Shown one piece after another: positions 19,606 through 40,179 of a stretch of 64,000 nt of DNA; positions within the stretch are counted from its first letter, which is position 1, and the number at the start of each line of letters is the position of its first letter. The stretch lies in assembly GCF_024700885.2 (NCBI RefSeq), contig NZ_CP117016.1. The stretch is one strand, 5' to 3'. The DNA is from Escherichia coli. GTDB taxonomy: Bacteria; Pseudomonadota; Gammaproteobacteria; Enterobacterales; Enterobacteriaceae. The position numbers were made by a program, and so were the translations under genes. The notes below the pieces were generated by a model, which searched no databases, was not told the DNA's origin, and saw only the letters and a program-made list of their open reading frames with translations.

Positions 19606-19692
19606 TGGTGCGAGGGGGGGGACTTGAACCCCCACGTCCGTAAGGACACTAACACCTGAAGCTAGCGCGTCTACCAATTCCGCCACCTTCGC
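19606..19692 (-). tRNA. leuV: tRNA-Leu (anticodon CAG)
   Basis: 87-nt minus-strand tRNA: GCGAAGGTGGCGGAATTGGTAGACGCGCTAGCTTCAGGTGTTAGTGTCCTTACGGACGTGGGGGTTCAAGTCCCCCCCCTCGCACCA, with long variable arm and encoded CCA. Confidence 0.95.
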
Positions 19693-19726
19693 ACAGTCAT
19701 CTTACTTTTTTTGATATCGCCTCGTT

Positions 19727-19813
19727 TGGTGCGAGGGGGGGGACTTGAACCCCCACGTCCGTAAGAACACTAACACCTGAAGCTAGCGCGTCTACCAATT
19801 CCGCCACCTTCGC
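19727..19813 (-). tRNA. leuP: tRNA-Leu (anticodon CAG), variant copy
   Basis: Same 87-nt tRNA with one substitution in the variable arm (plus strand gtaagaac instead of gtaaggac). Confidence 0.93.
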
Positions 19814-19841
19814 CCAGTGCGAGCAATATCAACGTGGTTTT

Positions 19842-19928
19842 TGGTGCGAGGGGGGGGACTTGAACCCCCACGTCCGTAAGGACACTAACACCTGAAGCTA
19901 GCGCGTCTACCAATTCCGCCACCTTCGC
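19842..19928 (-). tRNA. leuQ: tRNA-Leu (anticodon CAG)
   Basis: Third tandem copy, identical to copy 1; first transcribed of the minus-strand leuQPV operon. Confidence 0.95.
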
Positions 19929-20049: not shown

Positions 20050-20215
<166 letters not shown>

Positions 20216-23268: not shown

Positions 23269-24486
23269 ATGGCGCTGTCTGATGCGTGGTTGCGTTCAGT
23301 CGTTGGAAAGGAACGTGATAAGGTTTTGGTTAAATCCGATCGTGATGGTCTGTCTGTCAGAGTATCACCGAAAGGTCGCGTAGTGTTCCAATATCGTTAT
23401 CAATGGGCAGGGAAAGGTGAGCGCCTTGATATCGGAACTTACCCGGCAACTGGATTAAAAGAGGCCAGAGAAGAAGTTATCCGTCTCCGTGGTGAACTCG
23501 AGTCAAACCGCAATCCACGATTAGTCAGGCAGGCTGAAAAACGAAAAGCTACTGAAGCCATGACGGTAGAGTCTGTGATCCGTGCCTGGTATGAAGCATA
23601 TTGTGTAAAAAATAAAAAAGGTTCTGAACAGATACTCCGCTCGTTTGAGCTGCACCTGTTCTCTAAAATCGGGAATATCCCTCACGATGCAGCTACATTG
23701 CATGATTGGTTAGAAGTCCTGGAGCCTCTTAGCACTAAGACTCCAGCAATAGCAGACCGATTGCTAATTAACGCAAAGCAGGCCCATGTCTGGGCGTATA
23801 AGAGAAAGCTCATTGAAACTCGCCCACTGTCGGATATCACGGGTAAAGATATGGATATCCGTAAAGGTCAGAAGAAACGGTTTCTGACACATGATGAAAT
23901 TAAAATCCTTTATGCTGCGATCGATGGTTCTCGAATGGTTCCTAAATACCGGGCCTTCATTAAACTATTGCTGCATTTTGGCTGCCGTAGTTCAGAGCTA
24001 ATTACCGCCAGGGTGGACGATTTTGATTTCATTAATAAAGTATGGACTGTACCACCAGAACGACATAAGACTGGGGAGATAACAGGCGAACCGCTAAAGC
24101 GGCCCATTATTGAACCGGTTGAAGAGCTTATAAAGTACGCTATTTCTATGAACAATGGTTCCGATATGCTTTTTACTAAGGAAGGAAGCAGGGAACCCGT
24201 TGGTCGGACATCATTGCAGTCGCTGCCTTACAATTTAATGCAGTACGCATGGCGGCGTTTGGGGTATCAATTCCCTCATTGGTCTCTTCATGATTTGAGG
24301 CGAACAGCACGAACAAACTTTTCTGATCTTACTGCGCCTCATATTGCAGAAATAATGCTAGGTCATAAACTGCCAGGGGTATGGCAGGTTTATGACAAGA
24401 GCGATTATTTAGATGAACAGCGTAAAGCTTACCAGGCATGGTGGGAGAGAGTTGAATCGATAGTTACTTGTACTTGTTCAGACTAG
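23269..24486 (+). CDS. int: tyrosine site-specific integrase
   Basis: 405-aa ORF; C-terminal catalytic region with HDLRRTARTN and LGHKLPGVWQVYD (conserved R, H-x-x-R and Tyr); GGTGAG RBS. Confidence 0.9.
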   Translation: MALSDAWLRSVVGKERDKVLVKSDRDGLSVRVSPKGRVVFQYRYQWAGKGERLDIGTYPATGLKEAREEVIRLRGELESNRNPRLVRQAEKRKATEAMTVESVIRAWYEAYCVKNKKGSEQILRSFELHLFSKIGNIPHDAATLHDWLEVLEPLSTKTPAIADRLLINAKQAHVWAYKRKLIETRPLSDITGKDMDIRKGQKKRFLTHDEIKILYAAIDGSRMVPKYRAFIKLLLHFGCRSSELITARVDDFDFINKVWTVPPERHKTGEITGEPLKRPIIEPVEELIKYAISMNNGSDMLFTKEGSREPVGRTSLQSLPYNLMQYAWRRLGYQFPHWSLHDLRRTARTNFSDLTAPHIAEIMLGHKLPGVWQVYDKSDYLDEQRKAYQAWWERVESIVTCTCSD

Positions 24487-24619
24487 AACTGACATTTTGC
24501 ATAGGCAGAACGCAATTATGCATATTGCGGTATAATCCCCTTCTTAAAACTGTAAGAACTGCTTGCTAATCCTTGCAGTTTTTGATTATAACATTTTTAT
24601 TTGTTTATTAGGATTTTTG

Positions 24620-26752
24620 ATGGAACTGTTACAGGAACACGGGGCGATACTTAAAGTTGTAATCATGCCTACTACTGGGGAACAAACCATAATCCAAGGT
24701 TTCGATACTGGCCTCCTCAACCCAGAGATATCCAACATTCTTTTTTTATTGGCCAAAACACCAAAAGAAATTAGTGAGATTTTTGTCAATGAAAATGATA
24801 ACTTTCAGCCTACTCTAAGCGGGCTAAATCCTATTTTTTTAATATCTAAAGAAAATCTTGAAAAAATACCAGATATTTATCAAACGCCATTTTGCTTAAT
24901 TTTTTGTGCTAAAGAAGATTTTTCGTATGTTTGTGCTTTAAAAAAACATTTTGCTATACCACCTATAATTTGTTGCAATTCTAAACGCGCTGATCTACCA
25001 CTTAATAAGATTAATAGTATATACTCATTTGATAAGGTGCTCTTCTCTCGGTTGAAATTCATTGAGGATAAAATAAGAAAAAATCACAGTGAAAAGAAAA
25101 TATCAACGAAGTTGAAGCGAAGAGGGGCTTTATTTAATAAATCACCTTGGAGATCGACGCTTAACAATTCAACACTACCCAATGAGTTGTTAATTGAATC
25201 ACTTGGCTATATGCTATCTCCACCAAAAAGAATTAAAGATGGTAGTAGCAAAAGAGAGTTTATAGAAATAATACTTCATAGCGTTGATGCATACACCGAA
25301 TGTTTAAAGGAATTAGATATACCACTTCCAACGGAAGTCTTACTTTTTGCTCCGGGTATGCACTCTTTTTTATATGATAAAAATAATGACTTTTATGAGT
25401 TAATAACGGAAAATTTATCCACAATTGAGAAAAAATTCCTTATTGATGGAGTGTTGAGGAATCCAGGCTATTCTGGAATTAGACTTGATATAAATTCAGA
25501 TAGAAAAGAACTTTTTAAAAGTCCTGCTTTCCGTTACCTCACCTCACTAAGACGAGCTGAAATGCGATTAACAACAGCTGCGATTACTTTATTTAGCATA
25601 AATAAAAAAATCCCAGCAATAAGATTGCCAAATGCAATAAATCATTACTCCAATTATTTGAAAAATCTTGAAGATCTTGCAACTTCTTCTGGGATAAATA
25701 GTGAAGCATTCATCACTAAATCTAAAGCATTCAATACTGTTATTCGAAGAGCCCTTGGTTGCAAGTTGAGAACATATATAAGTAAAAACTATAGCGATTT
25801 GTCCTTTGTTTGTGATGTACCATTGGATTGGATTAGGTTTAATAACATACCTATAATGTTCAGTCATGAGATATCAAGAATAAATGCTACGCCTGGTAAC
25901 GTTCTTCTACAGAGCGCCTCTGCTTTTCCGCGCGTTTTAGTAAAAGCATCTGAGTTGAGAAAGGTTTTAGTTATACGTTCTTTTGAGCCTGATGATCACT
26001 TAAAGTTCATATTAGAGAACGCAATTGAGATATTTAAAAAACAGATGCCAGATCTTGATTGCGAGATTATTGATGTTAGATCGAAAGCTGAGTTTATTGA
26101 TGCTCTAAATCAATATCAAGGTCATATTCTTGTTATGGATTGTCATGGAAACCATGATGGCAATGGGAGTCATGGATGGTTAATAATAGGTGAGGATAAA
26201 GTGGACACTTGGAGTTTGAGAAAAATAGCAAGAATTCCTCCTATCGTAATTCTGAGTGCATGTTTAACATCTGCCCTAAGTGGTTCTCATGCCTCTGTTG
26301 CTAATGGCTTCGTTATAAGTGGTGCATTAAGTGTCATCGGAACATTACTGCCTGTAAATGCGATAGACTCTGCTGTTTTTGTAAGTCGGTTGATCTACCG
26401 GTTTTACGAGTTTCCTTCGACGCTATCTACAAATTTTACACATGTTAATGTAAGGCTTTTTCTTTCTGTTTTTCTTAGGATGTCCTATGCAAGCGATTTA
26501 ATAAGAGGATTTTTATCTGAAGATTTGATACCGAATAATTCATGGAAGAAAGATGCAGTTGATATTAACATGTATATAAACATGCTTCACCATGATTGGT
26601 ATGATTATGTAATTAACAAATTGACGATGTTAACGGGGCTCACGAAAAAAGATGTACTTGATTTTATCGATAGAAAATTATTCATAACCGAAACTATGTG
26701 CTATAGCCAAATTGGATTTCCAGATGCAATCACAATTAGTCTTAAAGATTGA
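24620..26752 (+). CDS. large AT-rich cargo protein with C-terminal caspase-like (CHAT-type) His/Cys protease signature; candidate defence protein
   Basis: ATG at 24620 (AGGA 6 nt upstream) gives ~710 aa. C-terminal region HILVMDCHGNHDGNGSHGWLIIGE...IPPIVILSACLTSALSGSH...GALSVIGTLLPVNAIDSAVFVSRLIYRFY has the His (HG) then Cys (SAC) spacing of clan-CD peptidases. N-terminal ~500 aa unassigned. Confidence 0.7.
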   Translation: MELLQEHGAILKVVIMPTTGEQTIIQGFDTGLLNPEISNILFLLAKTPKEISEIFVNENDNFQPTLSGLNPIFLISKENLEKIPDIYQTPFCLIFCAKEDFSYVCALKKHFAIPPIICCNSKRADLPLNKINSIYSFDKVLFSRLKFIEDKIRKNHSEKKISTKLKRRGALFNKSPWRSTLNNSTLPNELLIESLGYMLSPPKRIKDGSSKREFIEIILHSVDAYTECLKELDIPLPTEVLLFAPGMHSFLYDKNNDFYELITENLSTIEKKFLIDGVLRNPGYSGIRLDINSDRKELFKSPAFRYLTSLRRAEMRLTTAAITLFSINKKIPAIRLPNAINHYSNYLKNLEDLATSSGINSEAFITKSKAFNTVIRRALGCKLRTYISKNYSDLSFVCDVPLDWIRFNNIPIMFSHEISRINATPGNVLLQSASAFPRVLVKASELRKVLVIRSFEPDDHLKFILENAIEIFKKQMPDLDCEIIDVRSKAEFIDALNQYQGHILVMDCHGNHDGNGSHGWLIIGEDKVDTWSLRKIARIPPIVILSACLTSALSGSHASVANGFVISGALSVIGTLLPVNAIDSAVFVSRLIYRFYEFPSTLSTNFTHVNVRLFLSVFLRMSYASDLIRGFLSEDLIPNNSWKKDAVDINMYINMLHHDWYDYVINKLTMLTGLTKKDVLDFIDRKLFITETMCYSQIGFPDAITISLKD

Positions 26753-30610: not shown

Positions 30611-31285
30611 TTAGGCCTTTATTTTGTATCTTCTTGGTTTTCCCGAGAAAATCACTGTACCAATTATAGAGCAATTACCGTTAATCTTAATGTAAGGCTC
30701 AGGCCAGTTTGGGTTTAATGCTTTGAGATAACGCTGTGTTCCATCTTCTATCAATCGCTTGAAGGTGGTTTCGCCTGTATCGTGCATCAATGCAATAACG
30801 TCGTCACCGTGGCAGGCAGGGACTTCGGGATCAACAAAAATCATGTCTCCAGGGCGGTACTCATCAATCATTGAATCACCAATCACCCGCAAGATATAAG
30901 TCATTTCGCCACAGGGTACAGGGCAGGGGTAAGTTTCTGCTGTGCTCAAATCAACCTCAGAATAGCCAACTTCTTTCCATGCTCCGGCCTGTACCCATGA
31001 TATGACAGGGACTAACGTTATTTGTTTGTTAGTGATTGAAACATCAGGTTTTTTTGTGATGTTCGTGGTCTGGTGTTCTTGATCAAGCCATCCGACAGGC
31101 AGGTCGAAACATTTTTCGATGTGCCGCGCCATGCTGTCACCGATATTTTTAGTAGCACCATCTCCCATAAACCTGCTGGTCTGGGTTGGCTCGCGATCAA
31201 TCATGGTGGCAAAGGAAGAATTCCCGCCAACACCATCTCTCAGTTTTCTGGCGTTAGACCGCCGGATGTCATGGATTGTTTTCAT
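30611..31285 (-). CDS. cI: CI-type prophage repressor (HTH plus S24 LexA-like autopeptidase domain)
   Basis: 224-aa ORF; N-terminal HTH region and C-terminal S24 features (GDSM...; Lys in FKRL); divergent from cro. Confidence 0.85.
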   Translation of the reverse strand: MKTIHDIRRSNARKLRDGVGGNSSFATMIDREPTQTSRFMGDGATKNIGDSMARHIEKCFDLPVGWLDQEHQTTNITKKPDVSITNKQITLVPVISWVQAGAWKEVGYSEVDLSTAETYPCPVPCGEMTYILRVIGDSMIDEYRPGDMIFVDPEVPACHGDDVIALMHDTGETTFKRLIEDGTQRYLKALNPNWPEPYIKINGNCSIIGTVIFSGKPRRYKIKA

Positions 31286-31607: not shown

Positions 31608-32171
31608 ATGAGGCTAACCGTGGGTAAGTATCACTGGAAAGTAGAAAAACAGCCTGAGTGGTACGTGAAAGCTGTCAGAAAAACTATCGCAGCGTTGCCG
31701 GGTGGTTACGCTGAAGCAGCTGACTGGCTGGATGTAACAGAGAACGCATTATTTAACCGCCTTCGTGCCGATGGCGATCAGATTTTCCCGCTGGGATGGG
31801 CAATGGTTTTACAGCGCGCGGCTGGCACTCACTACATTGCGGATGCTGTCGCACAGTCTGCTGGTGGGGTGTTCGTATCGCTTCCTGAAATTGAGGAAGT
31901 AGAGAACGCCGATATAAACCAGCGCCTGCTGGAAGTCATCGAACAGATCGGGAATTACTCAAAGCAGATTCGTTCGGCAATCGAAGATGGGGTCGTGGAG
32001 CCACACGAGCAGACAGCAATTAATGATGAGTTGTATCTGTCAATTTCGAAGCTCCAGGAGCATGCAGCACTGGTCTACAAAATCTTTTGCGCTCCAGAAA
32101 AGAGTGACGCCCGCGAGTGTGCAGCTCCGGGCGTCGTGGCGTTTTGTGTCTGTGGAGAAACTAACGCATGA
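31608..32171 (+). CDS. CII-like / YdaT-like early regulatory protein
   Basis: 187-aa ORF in the cII position immediately after cro; family assignment is by position and weak resemblance only. Confidence 0.45.
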   Translation: MRLTVGKYHWKVEKQPEWYVKAVRKTIAALPGGYAEAADWLDVTENALFNRLRADGDQIFPLGWAMVLQRAAGTHYIADAVAQSAGGVFVSLPEIEEVENADINQRLLEVIEQIGNYSKQIRSAIEDGVVEPHEQTAINDELYLSISKLQEHAALVYKIFCAPEKSDARECAAPGVVAFCVCGETNA

Positions 32172-33004
32172 ACAGTTTAACGGCAAATAACCGTTTGTCG
32201 CAACAGCTGGTGGTCAGCGTCGCTGAACACCTGTTGTTACGGCATGAATGCAGATTACCAAATCACCTGGCTGTAAGTAACCACAGAGAACTTTACCTGA
32301 CTGTGGGGGGCGAGTTGTGCAAGAACTTAACCGCTGGTTTCGTGACGGAAGAGGGCTTTATGTCCATGTTATTCGTTGGGAGCCAGAAACACAGCGCGTT
32401 ATCTATCTTCGCAAAGACTACCCGCATGAGTGCTTTAGTCCTTTGTGGAAATTCAGGCGTGATTTTGTTGAGTGTGAAGGACCACCAGCACATTGATTCT
32501 GCCATTCCGGGACGTTACACTGTTCAGGCACCTTATAAAGCGGGTGTCGGGATTGGCGTCCTGGAATTGCATACGGCGACAATTGGCGCGTTAGCGTCTT
32601 TTTTGTTGCTACAACTCAGCTATACCCAAATTATGGTGGGCTGGGTGGGGGCACCGAAAGGTGCGCCGGTTTCCGTATGCGCCGGTTACGCCAACCCTGC
32701 TCAGTTCACCACCAGCGAAATTGGCGTTTCCGGTGGTGGAAGTTATCCATTGCATACGGAGGCTGCCATCATGGCTACTGTCCCAGCCCTCTCTCGTCTG
32801 AATGATGAAGACTTACATAAACTCAGTTATGTAACAACTGCACTACGTGCTCTGCGCAAGGTAACTCTTTCGGATCCGCAGGCGCATCAGGTTTTGGTAG
32901 AAACCCTTCTTAACTTGCAGGCTGAACGTATTCGTCTGGCGGATAAGGCTAATTTTCATATTCACCGTCTCCTGAATATCAGCGGAGGGCATCGTCATGC
33001 TTAA
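32168..33004 (+). CDS. phage hypothetical protein
   Basis: 278-aa ORF coupled to neighbours by ATGA overlap; no recognisable domain by eye. Confidence 0.45.
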   Translation: MNSLTANNRLSQQLVVSVAEHLLLRHECRLPNHLAVSNHRELYLTVGGELCKNLTAGFVTEEGFMSMLFVGSQKHSALSIFAKTTRMSALVLCGNSGVILLSVKDHQHIDSAIPGRYTVQAPYKAGVGIGVLELHTATIGALASFLLLQLSYTQIMVGWVGAPKGAPVSVCAGYANPAQFTTSEIGVSGGGSYPLHTEAAIMATVPALSRLNDEDLHKLSYVTTALRALRKVTLSDPQAHQVLVETLLNLQAERIRLADKANFHIHRLLNISGGHRHA

Positions 33005-33233
33005 TCCGTTGATCCTCAATATTTGCCGTTTGCTTCAGCGTAAAAAAACATCAATTCCTACAGTTGGGCAGTGGTACACCACACCTGCAGGGCATGTTCT
33101 ACGTGTTAGCTTGGTTGACCGTGAATGCCAGAAGGTGATTTGTGAACCGCTGGGCCGTAATTACCGCGTCAGTATGCCGCTTATAGCCTTTCGCTCCGGA
33201 AAAAACATGAAGCATCTCGGAGGTGCAGCATGA
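32997..33233 (+). CDS. phage hypothetical small protein
   Basis: 78-aa ORF with GGAGGG RBS; overlaps both neighbours. Confidence 0.4.
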   Translation: MLNPLILNICRLLQRKKTSIPTVGQWYTTPAGHVLRVSLVDRECQKVICEPLGRNYRVSMPLIAFRSGKNMKHLGGAA

Positions 33234-34048
33234 GTATGGAGCTGATGGTTAAAGCGATGAAAATTCGAGTGGGTAATCCATTGCGAAAACTGGTTCTGAT
33301 CAAGCTGGCTGATAATGCCAGCGATCAGGGTGAGTGCTGGCCCAGCTACCAGCATATTGCTGACCAGTGTGAGATTAGCAAACGTTCTGTGATGAATCAT
33401 ATTGCGGCCCTTTGTGAGTCCGGGCTGGTAAAAAAAGTCACCCGGAAAGGTGAAAAAGGTAACTCAAGTAATATCTATCTCCTTCATCTGGATGGTGCAG
33501 GAGATTCACTAGGGGGTAGTGCAAATAATTCACTATCTGGTGCAGCAAATTCACTAGGTAGTGCAGGAGTTGCACCAGGGGGTAGTGCAGGAGATTCACC
33601 CAGAACCAGTCACTCTTTTGAACCAGTCAAAGAACCAGTCAATGAACCAATAGCTGTTGGTGCATCAGTTGATGAGTCCGTGCGAGTTCGTTCAAACCGA
33701 CCGGAATACTCTCCGGAGTTTGAGCAGGCATGGCTGGCATATCCCAAACGTGCTGGTGGCAATTCAAAATCTGCAGCCTTCAAAGCCTGGAAAGCCCGTT
33801 TGAATGAGGGGGTAAACCCCGAAACCATGCTGGAAGGTGTGAAACGCTACGCGGGCTGGGTATCTGCGATGGGTAACAGCGGCACACAATTTGTGAAACA
33901 GGCTGTCACGTTCTTTGGTCCGGATCGTCATTTCGAAGAATCCTGGGAAGTTCCTGCGGTATCTGCAGCTAGACGTGAGGACCCGTACTTCAAAGCCAGT
34001 TACGACAACGTGGACTACAGCCAGATCCCGGCAGGATTCAGGGGGTGA
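33230..34048 (+). CDS. putative replication initiation protein (N-terminal winged-helix, Gly/Ser linker)
   Basis: 272-aa ORF; N-terminal segment LVLIKLADNASDQGECWPSYQHIADQCEISKRSVMNHIAAL resembles phage replication-initiator HTH domains; low-complexity GGSANNSLSGAANSLGS linker. Confidence 0.55.
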   Translation: MSMELMVKAMKIRVGNPLRKLVLIKLADNASDQGECWPSYQHIADQCEISKRSVMNHIAALCESGLVKKVTRKGEKGNSSNIYLLHLDGAGDSLGGSANNSLSGAANSLGSAGVAPGGSAGDSPRTSHSFEPVKEPVNEPIAVGASVDESVRVRSNRPEYSPEFEQAWLAYPKRAGGNSKSAAFKAWKARLNEGVNPETMLEGVKRYAGWVSAMGNSGTQFVKQAVTFFGPDRHFEESWEVPAVSAARREDPYFKASYDNVDYSQIPAGFRG

Positions 34049-34050
34049 TC

Positions 34051-34539
34051 ATGAGTCTTTTGAATGAAGTTCAGAAATTCATTGAAGCCCATCCGGGGTG
34101 TACTTCCGGAGACATTGCGGATGCTTTTGCAGGTTACTCACGGCAGCGCGTTCTGCAGTCAGCAAGCAAGTTACGTCAGAGTGGGCGTGTGGCTCACCGT
34201 TGTGAAGGAGATACACGCAGACATTTCCCACGCCTGACTGAGAGAGCGCAGGAGCCGGAACCACAACCAGTTCGTGAAACCAGACCTGTGCGCAATTTCT
34301 ATGTCGGCACTAACGATCCCCGGGTGATTTTGTGCCTGACCCGCCAGGCGGAAGAACTGGAGTCCAGGGGCTTATACCGTCGTGCTGCAACGGTGTGGAT
34401 GGCGGCATTCCGTGAAAGCTACTCCCAGCCAGAACGAAACAATTTTCTGGCGCGTCGTGAACGGTGTTTACGGAAAAGCAGTAAGCGGGCTGCATCAGGT
34501 GAAGAGTGGTATCTGTCAGGGAATTACGTGGGGGCTTAA
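34051..34539 (+). CDS. PerC-family transcriptional activator-like protein
   Basis: 162-aa ORF; segment AEELESRGLYRRAATVWMAAF matches the PerC-family core as I recall it. Confidence 0.5.
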   Translation: MSLLNEVQKFIEAHPGCTSGDIADAFAGYSRQRVLQSASKLRQSGRVAHRCEGDTRRHFPRLTERAQEPEPQPVRETRPVRNFYVGTNDPRVILCLTRQAEELESRGLYRRAATVWMAAFRESYSQPERNNFLARRERCLRKSSKRAASGEEWYLSGNYVGA

Positions 34540-34865
34540 TGACGACGTTAACTCAATGCCAGCAGCAGGTGCTGGATATGCTGATTTCTTACCAGAAAGA
34601 ACGTGGCTTCCCGCCAACCAATCAGGAGGTGGCAACCATGCTGGGATACCGTTCGGTGAATGCAGCGGTGGAGCATCTTCGCGCACTGGAGAAAAAAGGC
34701 GTCATCACGATAAAGCGTGGCGTGGCCCGGGGGATAACGCTTCATACCGCGGTGAAGGACGACGACAGCGAGGCTGTCGGGATTATCCGCTCACTGCTTG
34801 CCGGTGAGGAAAACGCAAGGCTGCGTGCAACCCACTGGCTACATGAGAGAGGCCTGAAAGTATGA
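34539..34865 (+). CDS. small protein with LexA-type N-terminal DNA-binding domain
   Basis: 108-aa ORF (MTTLTQCQQQVLDMLISYQKERGFPPTNQEVATMLGYRSVNAAVEHLRALEKKGVI...) closely resembling the LexA winged-helix domain; no peptidase domain. Confidence 0.55.
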   Translation: MTTLTQCQQQVLDMLISYQKERGFPPTNQEVATMLGYRSVNAAVEHLRALEKKGVITIKRGVARGITLHTAVKDDDSEAVGIIRSLLAGEENARLRATHWLHERGLKV

Positions 34866-35251
34866 AACTGATCCTGCCTTTCCCGCCCAGCGTGAATACG
34901 TACTGGCGACACCCTAACAAAGGGGCGTTTGCTGGTAAAAGCCTGATAAGCACGGCGGGGCGCAAATTCCAGAGCGCGGCGTGCGCAGCAATAGTTGAGC
35001 AGTTACGTCGTCTGCCGAAACCAACGTCGGCACCTGCTTCAGTGGAGATCGTGTTGTTTCCTCCGGATAACCGGATCCGCGATCTGGACAACTATAACAA
35101 GGCACTGTTTGACGCCCTGACCCACGCGGGTGTGTGGGAAGACGACAGTCAGGTGAAAAGAATGCTGGTGGAGTGGGGACCGGTTATCCCGGAAGGGAAG
35201 GTCGAGATCACTATCAGTAAGTACGAGAAAACGGCGGGTGCAGCCGCCTGA
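34862..35251 (+). CDS. rusA: Holliday-junction resolvase RusA
   Basis: 129-aa ORF with the RusA signature (PPSVNTYWR..., DLDNYNKALFDAL). Confidence 0.85.
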   Translation: MKLILPFPPSVNTYWRHPNKGAFAGKSLISTAGRKFQSAACAAIVEQLRRLPKPTSAPASVEIVLFPPDNRIRDLDNYNKALFDALTHAGVWEDDSQVKRMLVEWGPVIPEGKVEITISKYEKTAGAAA

Positions 35252-35270
35252 TTAAGAGGAGAAACGAAGT

Positions 35271-36081: not shown

Positions 36082-37077
36082 GTGACCGTGAGAGCACTAC
36101 TGACCCCTGAAATTGCCCCGCGTATGGGGATCGTATTGTTCAGGCCAGGTTCAGAGCTGATGCCCCTGTTTATGCAGGGGCGTGTCCTGCTGGAGCCTGA
36201 GCCGGAACGTTATTCATCTTTCGCCAGTGGTGCCGTTCCGGCGGCATCACAACCGCTGGCGGATGATCCTGCCGTTCGGGCCGTGTTCCGCAATGAGGCA
36301 GTGATCCGTCGTGCTGGTGGCGTGGAATGTCTTGAAAGCTGGTTACTTCGTGAAAAAGGCTGCCAGTGGCCTCATTCCGACTGGCACAGCGAGAACATGA
36401 CCACAATGCGACACGCGCCGGGCGCAATCCGTCTGTGCTGGCACTGCGATAACCAGCTGCGCGATCAGTTCACGGAACGGCTGGAATCAATGGCAACGGA
36501 TAACTGTGCCCGCTGGGTGTTGTCTGTTGTGCGTCGGGATCTCGGTTTTGATGACAGTCACGTTGTGACAATGCCGGAACTGTGCTGGTGGCTGATTCGT
36601 AATGACCTGGCGGATGCCTTACCGGAAAGTGCAGCCCGTAAGGCACTGAGATTACCAAAGCCTGTTGTGCCGTCTGTCACCCGGGAAAGTGACCTTGTGC
36701 CTTCGGTTCCTGCCACCAGCATCATCCAGGATAAAGCGAAAAAGGTGCTGGCGCTGAAAGTGGATCCGGAGTCGCCGGAGTCTTTTATGTTACGCCCAAA
36801 ACGTCGCCGCTGGGTTAATGAAAAGTACACGCGCTGGGTTAAGACACAGCCGTGTGCATGTTGTGGAAAGCCCGCTGATGATCCCCACCACCTGATAGGT
36901 CACGGTCAGGGTGGAATGGGAACAAAAGCGCATGACCTCTTTGTGTTGCCTTTGTGCAGAAAGCATCACGACGAGCTGCATGCGGATACCGTGGCATTTG
37001 AAGAGAAGTATGGCTCTCAGCTGGAGCTGATATTTCGTTTTATCGATCGTGCGCTGGCAATTGGCGTATTGGCGTAA
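36082..37077 (+). CDS. DUF968-family phage protein
   Basis: 331-aa ORF (GTG start as listed, or ATG at 36124) with C-terminal C-x-C-C ... H-H motif (CACCGKPADDPHHLIGHG...LCRKHHDELH). Confidence 0.65.
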   Translation: MTVRALLTPEIAPRMGIVLFRPGSELMPLFMQGRVLLEPEPERYSSFASGAVPAASQPLADDPAVRAVFRNEAVIRRAGGVECLESWLLREKGCQWPHSDWHSENMTTMRHAPGAIRLCWHCDNQLRDQFTERLESMATDNCARWVLSVVRRDLGFDDSHVVTMPELCWWLIRNDLADALPESAARKALRLPKPVVPSVTRESDLVPSVPATSIIQDKAKKVLALKVDPESPESFMLRPKRRRWVNEKYTRWVKTQPCACCGKPADDPHHLIGHGQGGMGTKAHDLFVLPLCRKHHDELHADTVAFEEKYGSQLELIFRFIDRALAIGVLA

Positions 37078-37090
37078 GTGGAGAACGAGC

Positions 37091-37843
37091 ATGAACCTTG
37101 AAGCCTTACCAAAATATTACTCCCCAAAATCTCCAAAATTGAGCGATGACGCACCGGCGACAGGCTCAGGTGGTTTAACGATTACGGATGTGATGGCTGC
37201 GCAGGGGATGGTGCAGTCGAAAGCACCGCTTGGGTTTGCCTTATTCCTGGCAAAAGTTGGTGTTCAGGATCCTCAATTTGCGATTGAAGGTCTGCTCAAT
37301 TACGCGATGGCACTGGATAACCCGACATTGAACAAATTGAGTGAAGAAACCCGGTTACAGATCATCCCTTACCTTGTGAATTTTGCCTTTGCTGATTATT
37401 CCAGGTCTGCGGCAAGTAAGGCTCGCTGTGAGCATTGTGCTGGTACTGGATTTCATAATGTATTGCGCGAAGTGGTGAAACACTCCAGAAGCGGGGAATC
37501 TGTTATCAAGGAAGAGTGGGTGAAGGAACTATGTCAGCATTGTCATGGTAAGGGAGAAGTCAGCACAGCGTGCAGAGGGTGTAAGGGTAAAGGTATTGTC
37601 CTGGATGAAAAAAGGACCCGGCTTCATGGCACGCCTGTTTATAAGATTTGTGGGCGTTGCAATGGAAACCGGTTTAGCCGTTTACCAACCACACTGGCGC
37701 GGCATCATGTCCAGAAGCTGGTACCAGACCTGACGGATTATCAGTGGTACAAAGGATATGCAGATGTCATTGATAAACTGGTTACAAAGTGCTGGCAGGA
37801 AGAAGCATATGCAGAGATACAATTGAGAAATGTGACAAGATAA
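37091..37843 (+). CDS. putative late-gene antiterminator (Q-like, zinc-finger rich)
   Basis: 250-aa ORF from ATG 37091 (GGAG RBS); several CxxC pairs (CEHCAGTG, CQHCHGKG, CRGCKGKG, CGRCNG); sits immediately upstream of the tR'-like terminator and lysis cassette. Confidence 0.45.
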   Translation: MNLEALPKYYSPKSPKLSDDAPATGSGGLTITDVMAAQGMVQSKAPLGFALFLAKVGVQDPQFAIEGLLNYAMALDNPTLNKLSEETRLQIIPYLVNFAFADYSRSAASKARCEHCAGTGFHNVLREVVKHSRSGESVIKEEWVKELCQHCHGKGEVSTACRGCKGKGIVLDEKRTRLHGTPVYKICGRCNGNRFSRLPTTLARHHVQKLVPDLTDYQWYKGYADVIDKLVTKCWQEEAYAEIQLRNVTR

Positions 37844-38976: not shown

Positions 38977-39126
38977 TGGCGGTTTCCTGCTGTGAAAATG
39001 GGCGGCTGGTGGGTGTTGGTAGCACCTGCCAGCCATTCGCTCATGCTTACTGGTCACAAGCGAACCATGGCCCACTGCTTTAGCGCAAAAGCAGAGTGAG
39101 CCTACCAGAGTTACGCTTACTGATTC

Positions 39127-40179
39127 ATGAAAAATACTGTAAAAATAAACAGTGTTGATTTAATCAACGCTGATTGCCTGCATTTTATTCAGTCCCTGCC
39201 TGATGATTCCATTGACCTGATTGTTACCGATCCGCCGTACTTCAAGGTGAAACCCAACGGCTGGGACAATCAGTGGAAAGGGGACGAAGATTACCTTAAG
39301 TGGCTGGACCACTGTCTGGCCCAGTTCTGGCGGGTGTTAAAACCTGCCGGAAGCCTTTACCTGTTCTGTGGGCATCGCCTGGCATCTGATATTGAGATCA
39401 TGATGCGTGAACGTTTCAACGTGCTTAACCATATCATCTGGGCGAAGCCGTCCGGACGTTGGAATGGGTGTAATAAAGAAAGTCTGCGCGCATATTTTCC
39501 TGCCACAGAGCGCGTTCTGTTTGCTGAACATTACCAGGGGCCATATCGCGGCAAAAGTGACGGCTATGCAGCAAAAGAAAGGGAACTCAAACAGCACATA
39601 ATGGCACCGCTGATATCGTATTTCAGGGATGCTCGTGCCGAACTGGGTATAACGGCAAAACAAATTGCCGAAGCCACAGGTAAGAAAAATATGGTTTCCC
39701 ACTGGTTTGGTGCCAGTCAGTGGCAGTTGCCGAATGAGGCTGACTATCGGAAGTTACAGGCACTGTTTTCCCGTATAGCGGCAGAGAAGTTTCAGGAACA
39801 ACAACTGGAACAACCACACCACCAGCTGGTGGCATCTTATGATTCACTGAATCGTAAATATTCTGAATTGCTGGATGAGTTTAAATCTCTCCGGCGCTAT
39901 TTCTCCGTATCAGTCTCCGTGCCTTATACCGATGTCTGGATGCATAAACCCGTTCAGTTCTACCCGGGGAAACATCCGTGTGAGAAACCGGCGGATATGC
40001 TCAGGCAAATAATCAATGCCAGTAGTCGACCTGGTGATCTGGTTGCTGATTTTTTTATGGGATCCGGTTCCACAATAAAAGCAGCAATGGCGCTGGGGCG
40101 TCGGGCCTTAGGTGTTGAGCTTGAGTCAGAGCGGTTTAACCAGACAGTGAAAGAGATAAACGAGCTGGTGGGGAAATAA
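39127..40179 (+). CDS. orphan DNA methyltransferase (N6-adenine or N4-cytosine class, DPPY motif)
   Basis: 350-aa ORF; catalytic motif IVTDPPYF near the N-terminus and a C-terminal SAM-binding region (FFMGSGST); no adjacent restriction endonuclease gene. Confidence 0.85.

Follow-up and report, generated by a model that had tools for sequence, protein, structure and literature searches.

A PerC-family gene and a truncated LexA homologue are independent accessory genes of the early operon in a lambdoid Escherichia coli prophage

LexA dimerizes through its C-terminal domain, and its isolated N-terminal fragment binds operators specifically and dimerizes on DNA; this fragment is normally removed by ClpXP, and its removal is required for full SOS induction. 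Such behaviour makes a repressor built from the N-terminal domain only physically plausible. The residues of LexA that contact DNA are Ser39, Asn41, Ala42, Glu44 and Glu45 (PMC3091678). Our literature search returned a single characterized phage-encoded truncated LexA homologue, gp6 of the Bacillus thuringiensis tectivirus GIL01 (PMC6182141). This protein of a temperate phage is made from the early operon after SOS induction and consists of the LexA winged helix alone, with neither a peptidase nor a dimerization domain; its recognition helix has diverged, with K38 being critical, and it binds a palindrome of its own and activates a late promoter.

A second group of described relatives is formed by PerC, encoded on the pEAF plasmid of enteropathogenic E. 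coli (EPEC), and PchA, PchB and PchC, encoded on prophage-like elements of enterohaemorrhagic E. coli (EHEC), which have the Pfam domain PF06069 in common, spread by horizontal transfer and are frequently associated with phages. Activation of ler has been described for Pch A, B and C (PMC5931665), and Pch relieves H-NS silencing, that is, acts as an anti-silencer (PMC4764244). PchD and PchE influence LEE only slightly, and the PerC-like proteins of E. coli PICIs either have no effect on LEE1 or repress it (PMC11773190). In Salmonella prophages the PerC label has at times been treated as a virulence marker (PMC8175864), and yfdN has been described as a PerC homologue unique to K-12 (PMC5931665). 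For the YfdN-type proteins and the LexA-like phage proteins of enterobacteria, our search of the literature found annotation-level mentions and no experiment.

Here we analysed a 64,000-nucleotide stretch of E. coli DNA (hereafter, the window) that carries a lambdoid prophage of the SfV/mEp460 type, integrated in the chromosome beside yjjG; 24 kb of the window are 100% identical to strain MLI114. The rightward early operon of this prophage encodes, in order, a cII-like protein (31608), DUF4222 and Ash proteins, a small ORF, a replication protein, a PerC-like protein, a LexA-like protein, RusA, KilA-N, DUF968 and Q. The features that the following account draws on are these:

30611-31285, S24-type repressor of the prophage, ymfK-like (RefSeq)
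33230..34048, + strand, replication initiator with HTH_36 and a DnaD/Phg_2220_C-like C terminus (Pfam HTH_36, E=1.8e-11; phrog_270 'replication initiation protein', E=3e-88)
34045..34539, + strand, YfdN-type PerC-family gene, 164 aa from the GTG at 34045 (RefSeq start) or 162 aa from the ATG at 34051, with a predicted two-domain product
34048..34230, + strand, predicted N-terminal winged helix of the PerC-like protein (aa 2-62 of the 164-aa form; H-H-H-beta-beta, AlphaFold2 pLDDT ~82-91)
34342..34497, + strand, PerC domain (PF06069) in the three-helix C-terminal region (model helices 92-107, 111-124 and 128-150, pLDDT ~86-92)
34537..34541, + strand, TAATG stop/start overlap (stop TAA 34537-34539, start ATG 34539-34541)
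34539..34865, + strand, LexA-N-terminal-domain-only gene, 108 aa (RefSeq WP_000210170.1, 'LexA family transcriptional regulator')
34539..34745, + strand, winged helix-turn-helix of the LexA-like protein (aa 1-69; recognition helix at ~34653-34694)
34758..34847, + strand, two-helix C-terminal tail of the LexA-like protein (aa 74-88 and 93-103; model helices, pLDDT ~71-77), standing in place of the LexA linker and peptidase
34862..35251, + strand, RusA Holliday-junction resolvase of the 129-aa subtype (Pfam RusA, E=1.2e-14)
37049-37843, Q antiterminator, with the late genes under Q (RefSeq)

The replication initiator, labelled 'helix-turn-helix domain-containing protein' in RefSeq, opens a chain of stop/start overlaps that runs through to rusA: its stop codon and the initiating GTG of the PerC-like gene share a GTGA, and a TAATG and an ATGA follow in turn. 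No promoter or terminator was predicted on the + strand between 33000 and 35250, and the sole promoter-like match begins at 35252, just past rusA. Both genes of interest are thus accessory genes of the delayed-early (pR, nin-like) operon, situated between the replication gene and Q. From this position they probably belong to the lytic cycle, being switched off in the lysogen and expressed once the prophage is induced or a cell infected, and because the operon is of the pR type, with no internal promoter predicted, the LexA-like protein would act in lytic growth. An earlier note on this DNA, made from the sequence alone, had proposed that the LexA-like protein could link the prophage to SOS control; for the lysogen this proposal probably does not hold, as the SOS link of the prophage is its own S24-type repressor. 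The dam promoter annotated inside SfV orf40 is of low strength, all the more so in the window, whose version has a -35 element reading TGGCGC, and it gives no evidence of lysogenic expression.

Several other elements were observed around this operon. Upstream of the replication genes, Rfam matches to the Hfq-binding RNA isrK (32528-32604, + strand, 58.9 bits) and to the C4 antisense RNA (32629-32716, + strand, 80.7 bits) lie in tandem in the prophage early region, inside a mechanically called ORF (32168-33004) and overlapping the annotated ash-family gene; the arrangement resembles the P1 immI and Gifsy-1 IsrK-type RNA control module. Between the integrase (23269-24486) and the early-left operon, a CHAT-domain protein of ~710 aa is carried as cargo (24563-26752, + strand); related genomes have an AIPR family protein in its position, which looks like a variable, defence-island-like slot. 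Upstream of the prophage, the host region holds three tandem tRNA-Leu(CAG) genes (19606-19928, - strand) and an Rfam naRNA4 (CssrE) match (20068-20150, + strand), both ordinary host content.

The region containing the two genes is widespread. It was matched in 2674 of 5426 complete E. coli genomes and in the phages Ayreon, mEp460, SfV, SfII, SfIV and cdtI as well as Stx2 phages; over 2 kb it is 100% identical in Ayreon and 97-98% identical in mEp460, SfV, 2H10 and the Stx2a, Stx2c and Stx2k phages. SfV orf40 and orf42 encode proteins 96-98% identical to the PerC-like and LexA-like proteins. The protein clusters of both comprise thousands of sequences from Escherichia, Shigella, Salmonella, Citrobacter and Hafnia. 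Thousands of genomes keep both as ORFs, as do homologues with identities as low as 25-48%, which shows that neither gene is a chance ORF. Both are already annotated, with PHROG families and RefSeq names, and are ordinary lambdoid accessory genes; the LexA-like one encodes a phage truncated LexA homologue with a family-specific tail.

The LexA-like protein matched the Pfam family LexA_DNA_bind (PF01726) with E=2.9e-19 and 69 bits (gathering cut-off 23.7 bits), its residues 1-65 covering the 65-position profile from end to end, and phrog_362 with E=1e-59. Its closest solved relatives were the E. coli LexA N-terminal domain and full-length LexA (E ~1e-15), with E=7e-16 for the N-terminal domain entry 1lea, and the E. 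coli LexA entries ranked ahead of two other solved LexA entries. Identity to E. coli LexA (1lea, 1jhh and 3jso) is 51% over residues 1-69, and the model of the protein superposed on the LexA-DNA complex 3jso with an rmsd of 1.0 Å over 67 residues. The description of the ~108-aa product in the earlier note as a LexA N-terminal winged helix is thus borne out, as is its statement that a peptidase domain is missing: the protein ends at residue 108, Pfam reported no Peptidase_S24 match in it, and the full-length LexA model TIGR00498 matched only at positions 1-91 of 203, with 70.8 bits against a cut-off of 110.95. The gene is therefore a phage gene coding for the LexA DNA-binding domain without the peptidase domain, as in the GIL01 gp6 type. 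Another peptidase-free architecture was seen in many ~160-aa proteins of the public library (P0272, P0273, P0276, P0279 and P0283), which carry two tandem LexA DNA-binding domains and look like single-chain pseudo-dimers.

Four of the five residues through which LexA contacts DNA are kept in the LexA-like protein (S39, N41, A42 and E45), together with H46 and the R64-G65-I66 wing. In the family alignment S39 is present in 18 of 18 members and N41 in 17 of 18. The exception is Glu44, which is a valine here, making position 44 hydrophobic in contrast to E. coli LexA, and is replaced across the family by V, A, F, T, L or Y; this replacement could alter the DNA specificity of the protein. As four of the five contacts are retained, the idea put forward in the earlier note, that the protein might act as an uncleavable mini-repressor at SOS boxes, is plausible. 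We regard SOS-box-type binding, which the retained residues suggest, as a tentative assignment whose chances fall somewhat short of even.

The remainder of the protein distinguishes it from both described systems. In comparison with E. coli LexA, it has no S24 peptidase with Ser119 and Lys156, no conserved Ala-Gly (Ala84-Gly85) cleavage site and no C-terminal dimerization domain, and its gene is phage-borne and lies in a lytic operon. In comparison with GIL01 gp6, it adds to the winged helix a conserved two-helix tail of ~35 aa, and unlike gp6 it belongs to a Q-antiterminator phage of Enterobacteriaceae. Within the tail, A97 and L101 do not vary, and the positions of I83, L86, L87 and W100 retain hydrophobic residues among homologues of 38-50% identity; since the tail is kept down to ~40% identity, the protein represents a maintained family (phrog_362) and not a truncated lexA pseudogene. 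A pair A88-G89 aligns near the LexA cleavage region AAGE, with no catalytic domain in cis; as a retained cleavage site it is doubtful, for the pair is not conserved, N, R, D, C or E replacing G89 in 9 of the 18 aligned sequences. With no S24 peptidase and no conserved cleavage site, the protein is predicted to be one that RecA* cannot inactivate. The tail may provide the dimerization that LexA obtains from its C-terminal domain; an AlphaFold2 model of a linked homodimer gave no confident dimer (pTM 0.35).

Downstream, the LexA-like gene has a stable neighbour. The ATGA overlap between it and rusA is found in the window, mEp460, SfV and mEp390 and in two metagenomic or genomic loci (L011 and L014), and rusA follows the LexA-like gene in 79 of 80 IMG/VR loci. 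That the overlap persists in mEp390, L011 and L014 despite a LexA-like identity of only 46-48% (RusA, 72-76%) could indicate that the LexA-like protein serves recombination or replication together with RusA, for instance by guiding the resolvase on DNA or holding it back, and is not a transcription factor. The link, however, is one-sided. RusA homologues occur in 322 phage records and the LexA-like protein in 61; ST64B-type phages encode an 80%-identical RusA without the LexA-like protein; SfIV and the Klebsiella phage ST846-OXA48phi9.1 carry the LexA-like gene with no annotated rusA directly downstream; and in mosaic phage genomes linkage can mean mere proximity. A role with RusA is on this evidence quite improbable. 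In the same Klebsiella phage (locus L009, 1-969) the LexA-like homologue, at 40% identity, lies two genes downstream of a homologue of DinI, a modulator of the SOS response, and SOS-related accessory genes may cluster in this lambdoid region.

Upstream, the relation to the PerC-like gene is looser. The TAATG overlap reported in the earlier note is present, yet the coupled unit that the note saw in it is contradicted by the distribution of the two genes. A 650-bp dam methyltransferase gene stands between them in mEp460, SfV, SfII, cdtI and Stx2c phages, and among 80 IMG/VR loci, chosen as those with a 98-100% identical LexA-like gene, the order perC-dam-lexA-like was found in 59, with direct adjacency of perC and the LexA-like gene in 17; the statistics for more distant contexts draw on only a few loci. 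SfV has the identical junction sequence, GGGGGCTTAATGA, with its ATG as the start of dam, so the TAATG coupling in the window is what remains when the dam cassette is missing. Either gene can also be found without the other. ST64B and related Salmonella phages have a PerC-like gene (68% identity) and no LexA-like gene, cdtI keeps the LexA-like gene with only 28 codons of the PerC-like gene left, and in mEp390 the LexA-like gene (47% identity) directly follows the replication gene, with no PerC-like gene. In K-12, the operon of the prophage CPS-53/KpLE1 ends truncated after a dam fragment (yfdM), without the LexA-like gene. The adjacency in the window is therefore incidental, and the two are separate accessory genes. 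This incidental adjacency, the N-terminal winged helix of the PerC-like protein and the two-helix tail of the LexA-like protein are features beyond those of the earlier note.

The PerC-like protein is identical to RefSeq WP_001373594.1 ('yfdN: PerC family transcriptional regulator') and matched phrog_1324 ('transcriptional activator') over its full length with E=1e-77. Pfam PerC (PF06069) was matched with E=1.7e-8 and 35.1 bits, above the gathering cut-off of 22.6 bits, at residues 98-149 of the 162-aa form, which confirms the assignment of the ORF at 34051-34539 as PerC-like. Sequence search with the protein matched no solved structure. In an AlphaFold2 model built with 16 homologues, a disordered Pro/Glu-rich linker (residues 65-86) separates the PerC domain from an N-terminal domain of ~60 residues, for which Foldseek returned winged helices of the ArsR/SmtB, MarR and Fur types with rmsd values of 1.9-3 Å; the winged-helix call rests on this model and on weak Foldseek E-values (0.03-0.1), and the domain is kept in homologues at 68-98% identity. 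The PerC domain also showed weak similarity to the ANR family (Aar) of small anti-activators, below threshold in NF033650 (22.8 bits against a cut-off of 32); such similarity has likewise been seen for the LEE-repressing PICI PerC-like protein (PMC11773190). ANR members are small single-domain proteins, whereas the PerC-like protein has 162/164 aa with a separate modelled winged helix and a disordered linker. It is, as modelled, a winged helix fused to a PerC domain and not a simple Pch-like protein.

The earlier note had drawn an analogy to the Pch proteins as activators of host virulence loci, and the strongest form of this view would make the PerC-like protein a Pch-type activator of LEE/ler and a functional pair with the LexA-like protein. 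The Pfam score above threshold is in keeping with such a role, as is the activation of ler by Pch A, B and C (PMC5931665), and one ler reporter strain had its MG1655 yfdN removed as a precautionary step. In contrast to PerC and Pch, however, the YfdN type is 164 aa long with an added winged helix, lying outside the ~90-position PerC profile, and a linker; its gene directly follows the replication gene within an operon of early lytic genes, unlike a moron, which would carry a promoter for itself; and it is widespread in non-pathogenic E. coli, being present in about half of the complete E. coli genomes and in K-12, whose YfdN (cryptic prophage CPS-53) belongs to the same family, has the same length and still bears the database label 'uncharacterized'. 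The PICI relatives are inactive on LEE or repressing (PMC11773190), PchD and PchE are of little effect, no LEE activation by the YfdN type is reported in the literature found, and the two genes of the supposed pair assort independently. The analogy is thus weak, and we consider the activator-and-pair explanation very unlikely. Given the gene distribution and operon position, the YfdN-type protein is probably not a dedicated virulence activator; by analogy with anti-silencing by Pch, it would most likely be a DNA-associated modulator of transcription or of nucleoid proteins in lytic growth. We also considered the gene as an obligatory part of the replication module, for instance as a helicase-loader substitute, and rejected this, since mEp390, L011 and L014 carry a related Rep without the PerC-like gene.

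To look for sites at which the LexA-like protein might act, we scanned the window with a position weight matrix of E. coli SOS boxes, which gives approximate scores. The only strong SOS box in the 64 kb was TACTGTAAAAATAAACAGTG at 39135-39154, with 22.4 bits on this approximate matrix, compared with a median of 20.9 bits for known boxes and 19.3 for the best of 30 shuffles. SOS boxes were not enriched in the window (CTGT-N8-ACAG with at most one mismatch, 26 against 20.4 expected). The box occupies codons 3-9 of a prophage DNA methyltransferase gene (ORF 39127-40179) in the late region, between Q and the holin gene, and both of its arms, CTGT and ACAG, are preserved in homologues of the methyltransferase gene (71-84% nucleotide identity) from phages of Citrobacter, Klebsiella, Providencia and Morganella. 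As a dedicated target of the LexA-like protein it was rejected, because it is present in phiNP and in the Providencia and Morganella phages without the gene, and mEp390 has the gene without such a methyltransferase. Since the box does not co-vary with the LexA-like gene, it is more likely a host LexA site, and the sequence suggests LexA control of, or LexA binding within, the late-region methyltransferase gene. Just upstream of the methyltransferase start lies an inverted repeat, GGCCCACTGCTTTAGCGCAAAAGCAGAGTGAGCC (39069-39102), which is nearly invariant across the same five phages as in the box comparison, even where its flanks diverge, and may form a hairpin in RNA or serve as a binding site for a protein.

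These results bear on whether the LexA-like protein might instead be a phage-specific regulator with its own operator, acting at a phage promoter and not on the host SOS regulon. The precedent is GIL01 gp6, with its distinct palindrome and activation of the late promoter P3 (PMC6182141); the systematic replacement of E44 in the family points the same way, and the faster evolution of the LexA-like protein than of RusA in the same loci (46-48% against 72-76% identity) fits co-evolution with a phage-specific target. Against these points, the late genes are under Q, so a late activator like gp6 is not needed; the LexA-like protein keeps S39, N41, A42 and E45, unlike the diverged recognition helix of gp6; and no conserved phage operator was identified as a candidate, the box at 39135 failing to co-vary with the gene. 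We judge a private operator the less probable reading, though still one to be taken seriously.

The explanation that we favour as a whole, while giving it slightly less than an even chance, is that the two are independent accessory genes of the lytic operon and that the LexA-like protein would be a RecA-insensitive binder of SOS-box-like operators. Under this explanation the protein would recognize CTGT-type half-sites, because the LexA recognition residues and wing are kept and E. coli LexA is the closest among the solved LexA structures. Co-transcription and translational coupling of its gene with rusA would let the product build up once induction or infection has set in and host LexA has become depleted. 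The protein, predicted to dimerize through its two-helix tail, would then occupy LexA-type operators, be they those of host SOS genes, of other SOS-controlled mobile elements or of a phage site. A more specific form, in which lambdoid phages carried by about half of the complete E. coli genomes use a stable, RecA-proof LexA mimic that re-closes LexA promoters during lytic growth, after the destruction of host LexA, and so silences the host SOS response and SOS-triggered competitors, with the tail supplying dimerization, seems to us unlikely; the competitors concerned would be colicins, LexA-controlled antirepressors of other prophages and SOS-induced toxins.

For the PerC family, the meaning of these observations is that the PerC label is not to be taken as a virulence marker. 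If the LexA-like protein has an operator of its own, it would be a second, Gram-negative case of the GIL01 gp6 principle, in which a LexA DNA-binding domain is recycled as a private phage regulator. If it binds SOS boxes, common prophages of E. coli and Shigella, including Stx prophages, would override the host DNA-damage response in the induced cell, and this could affect the induction of co-resident prophages, colicin release and mutagenesis under antibiotics.
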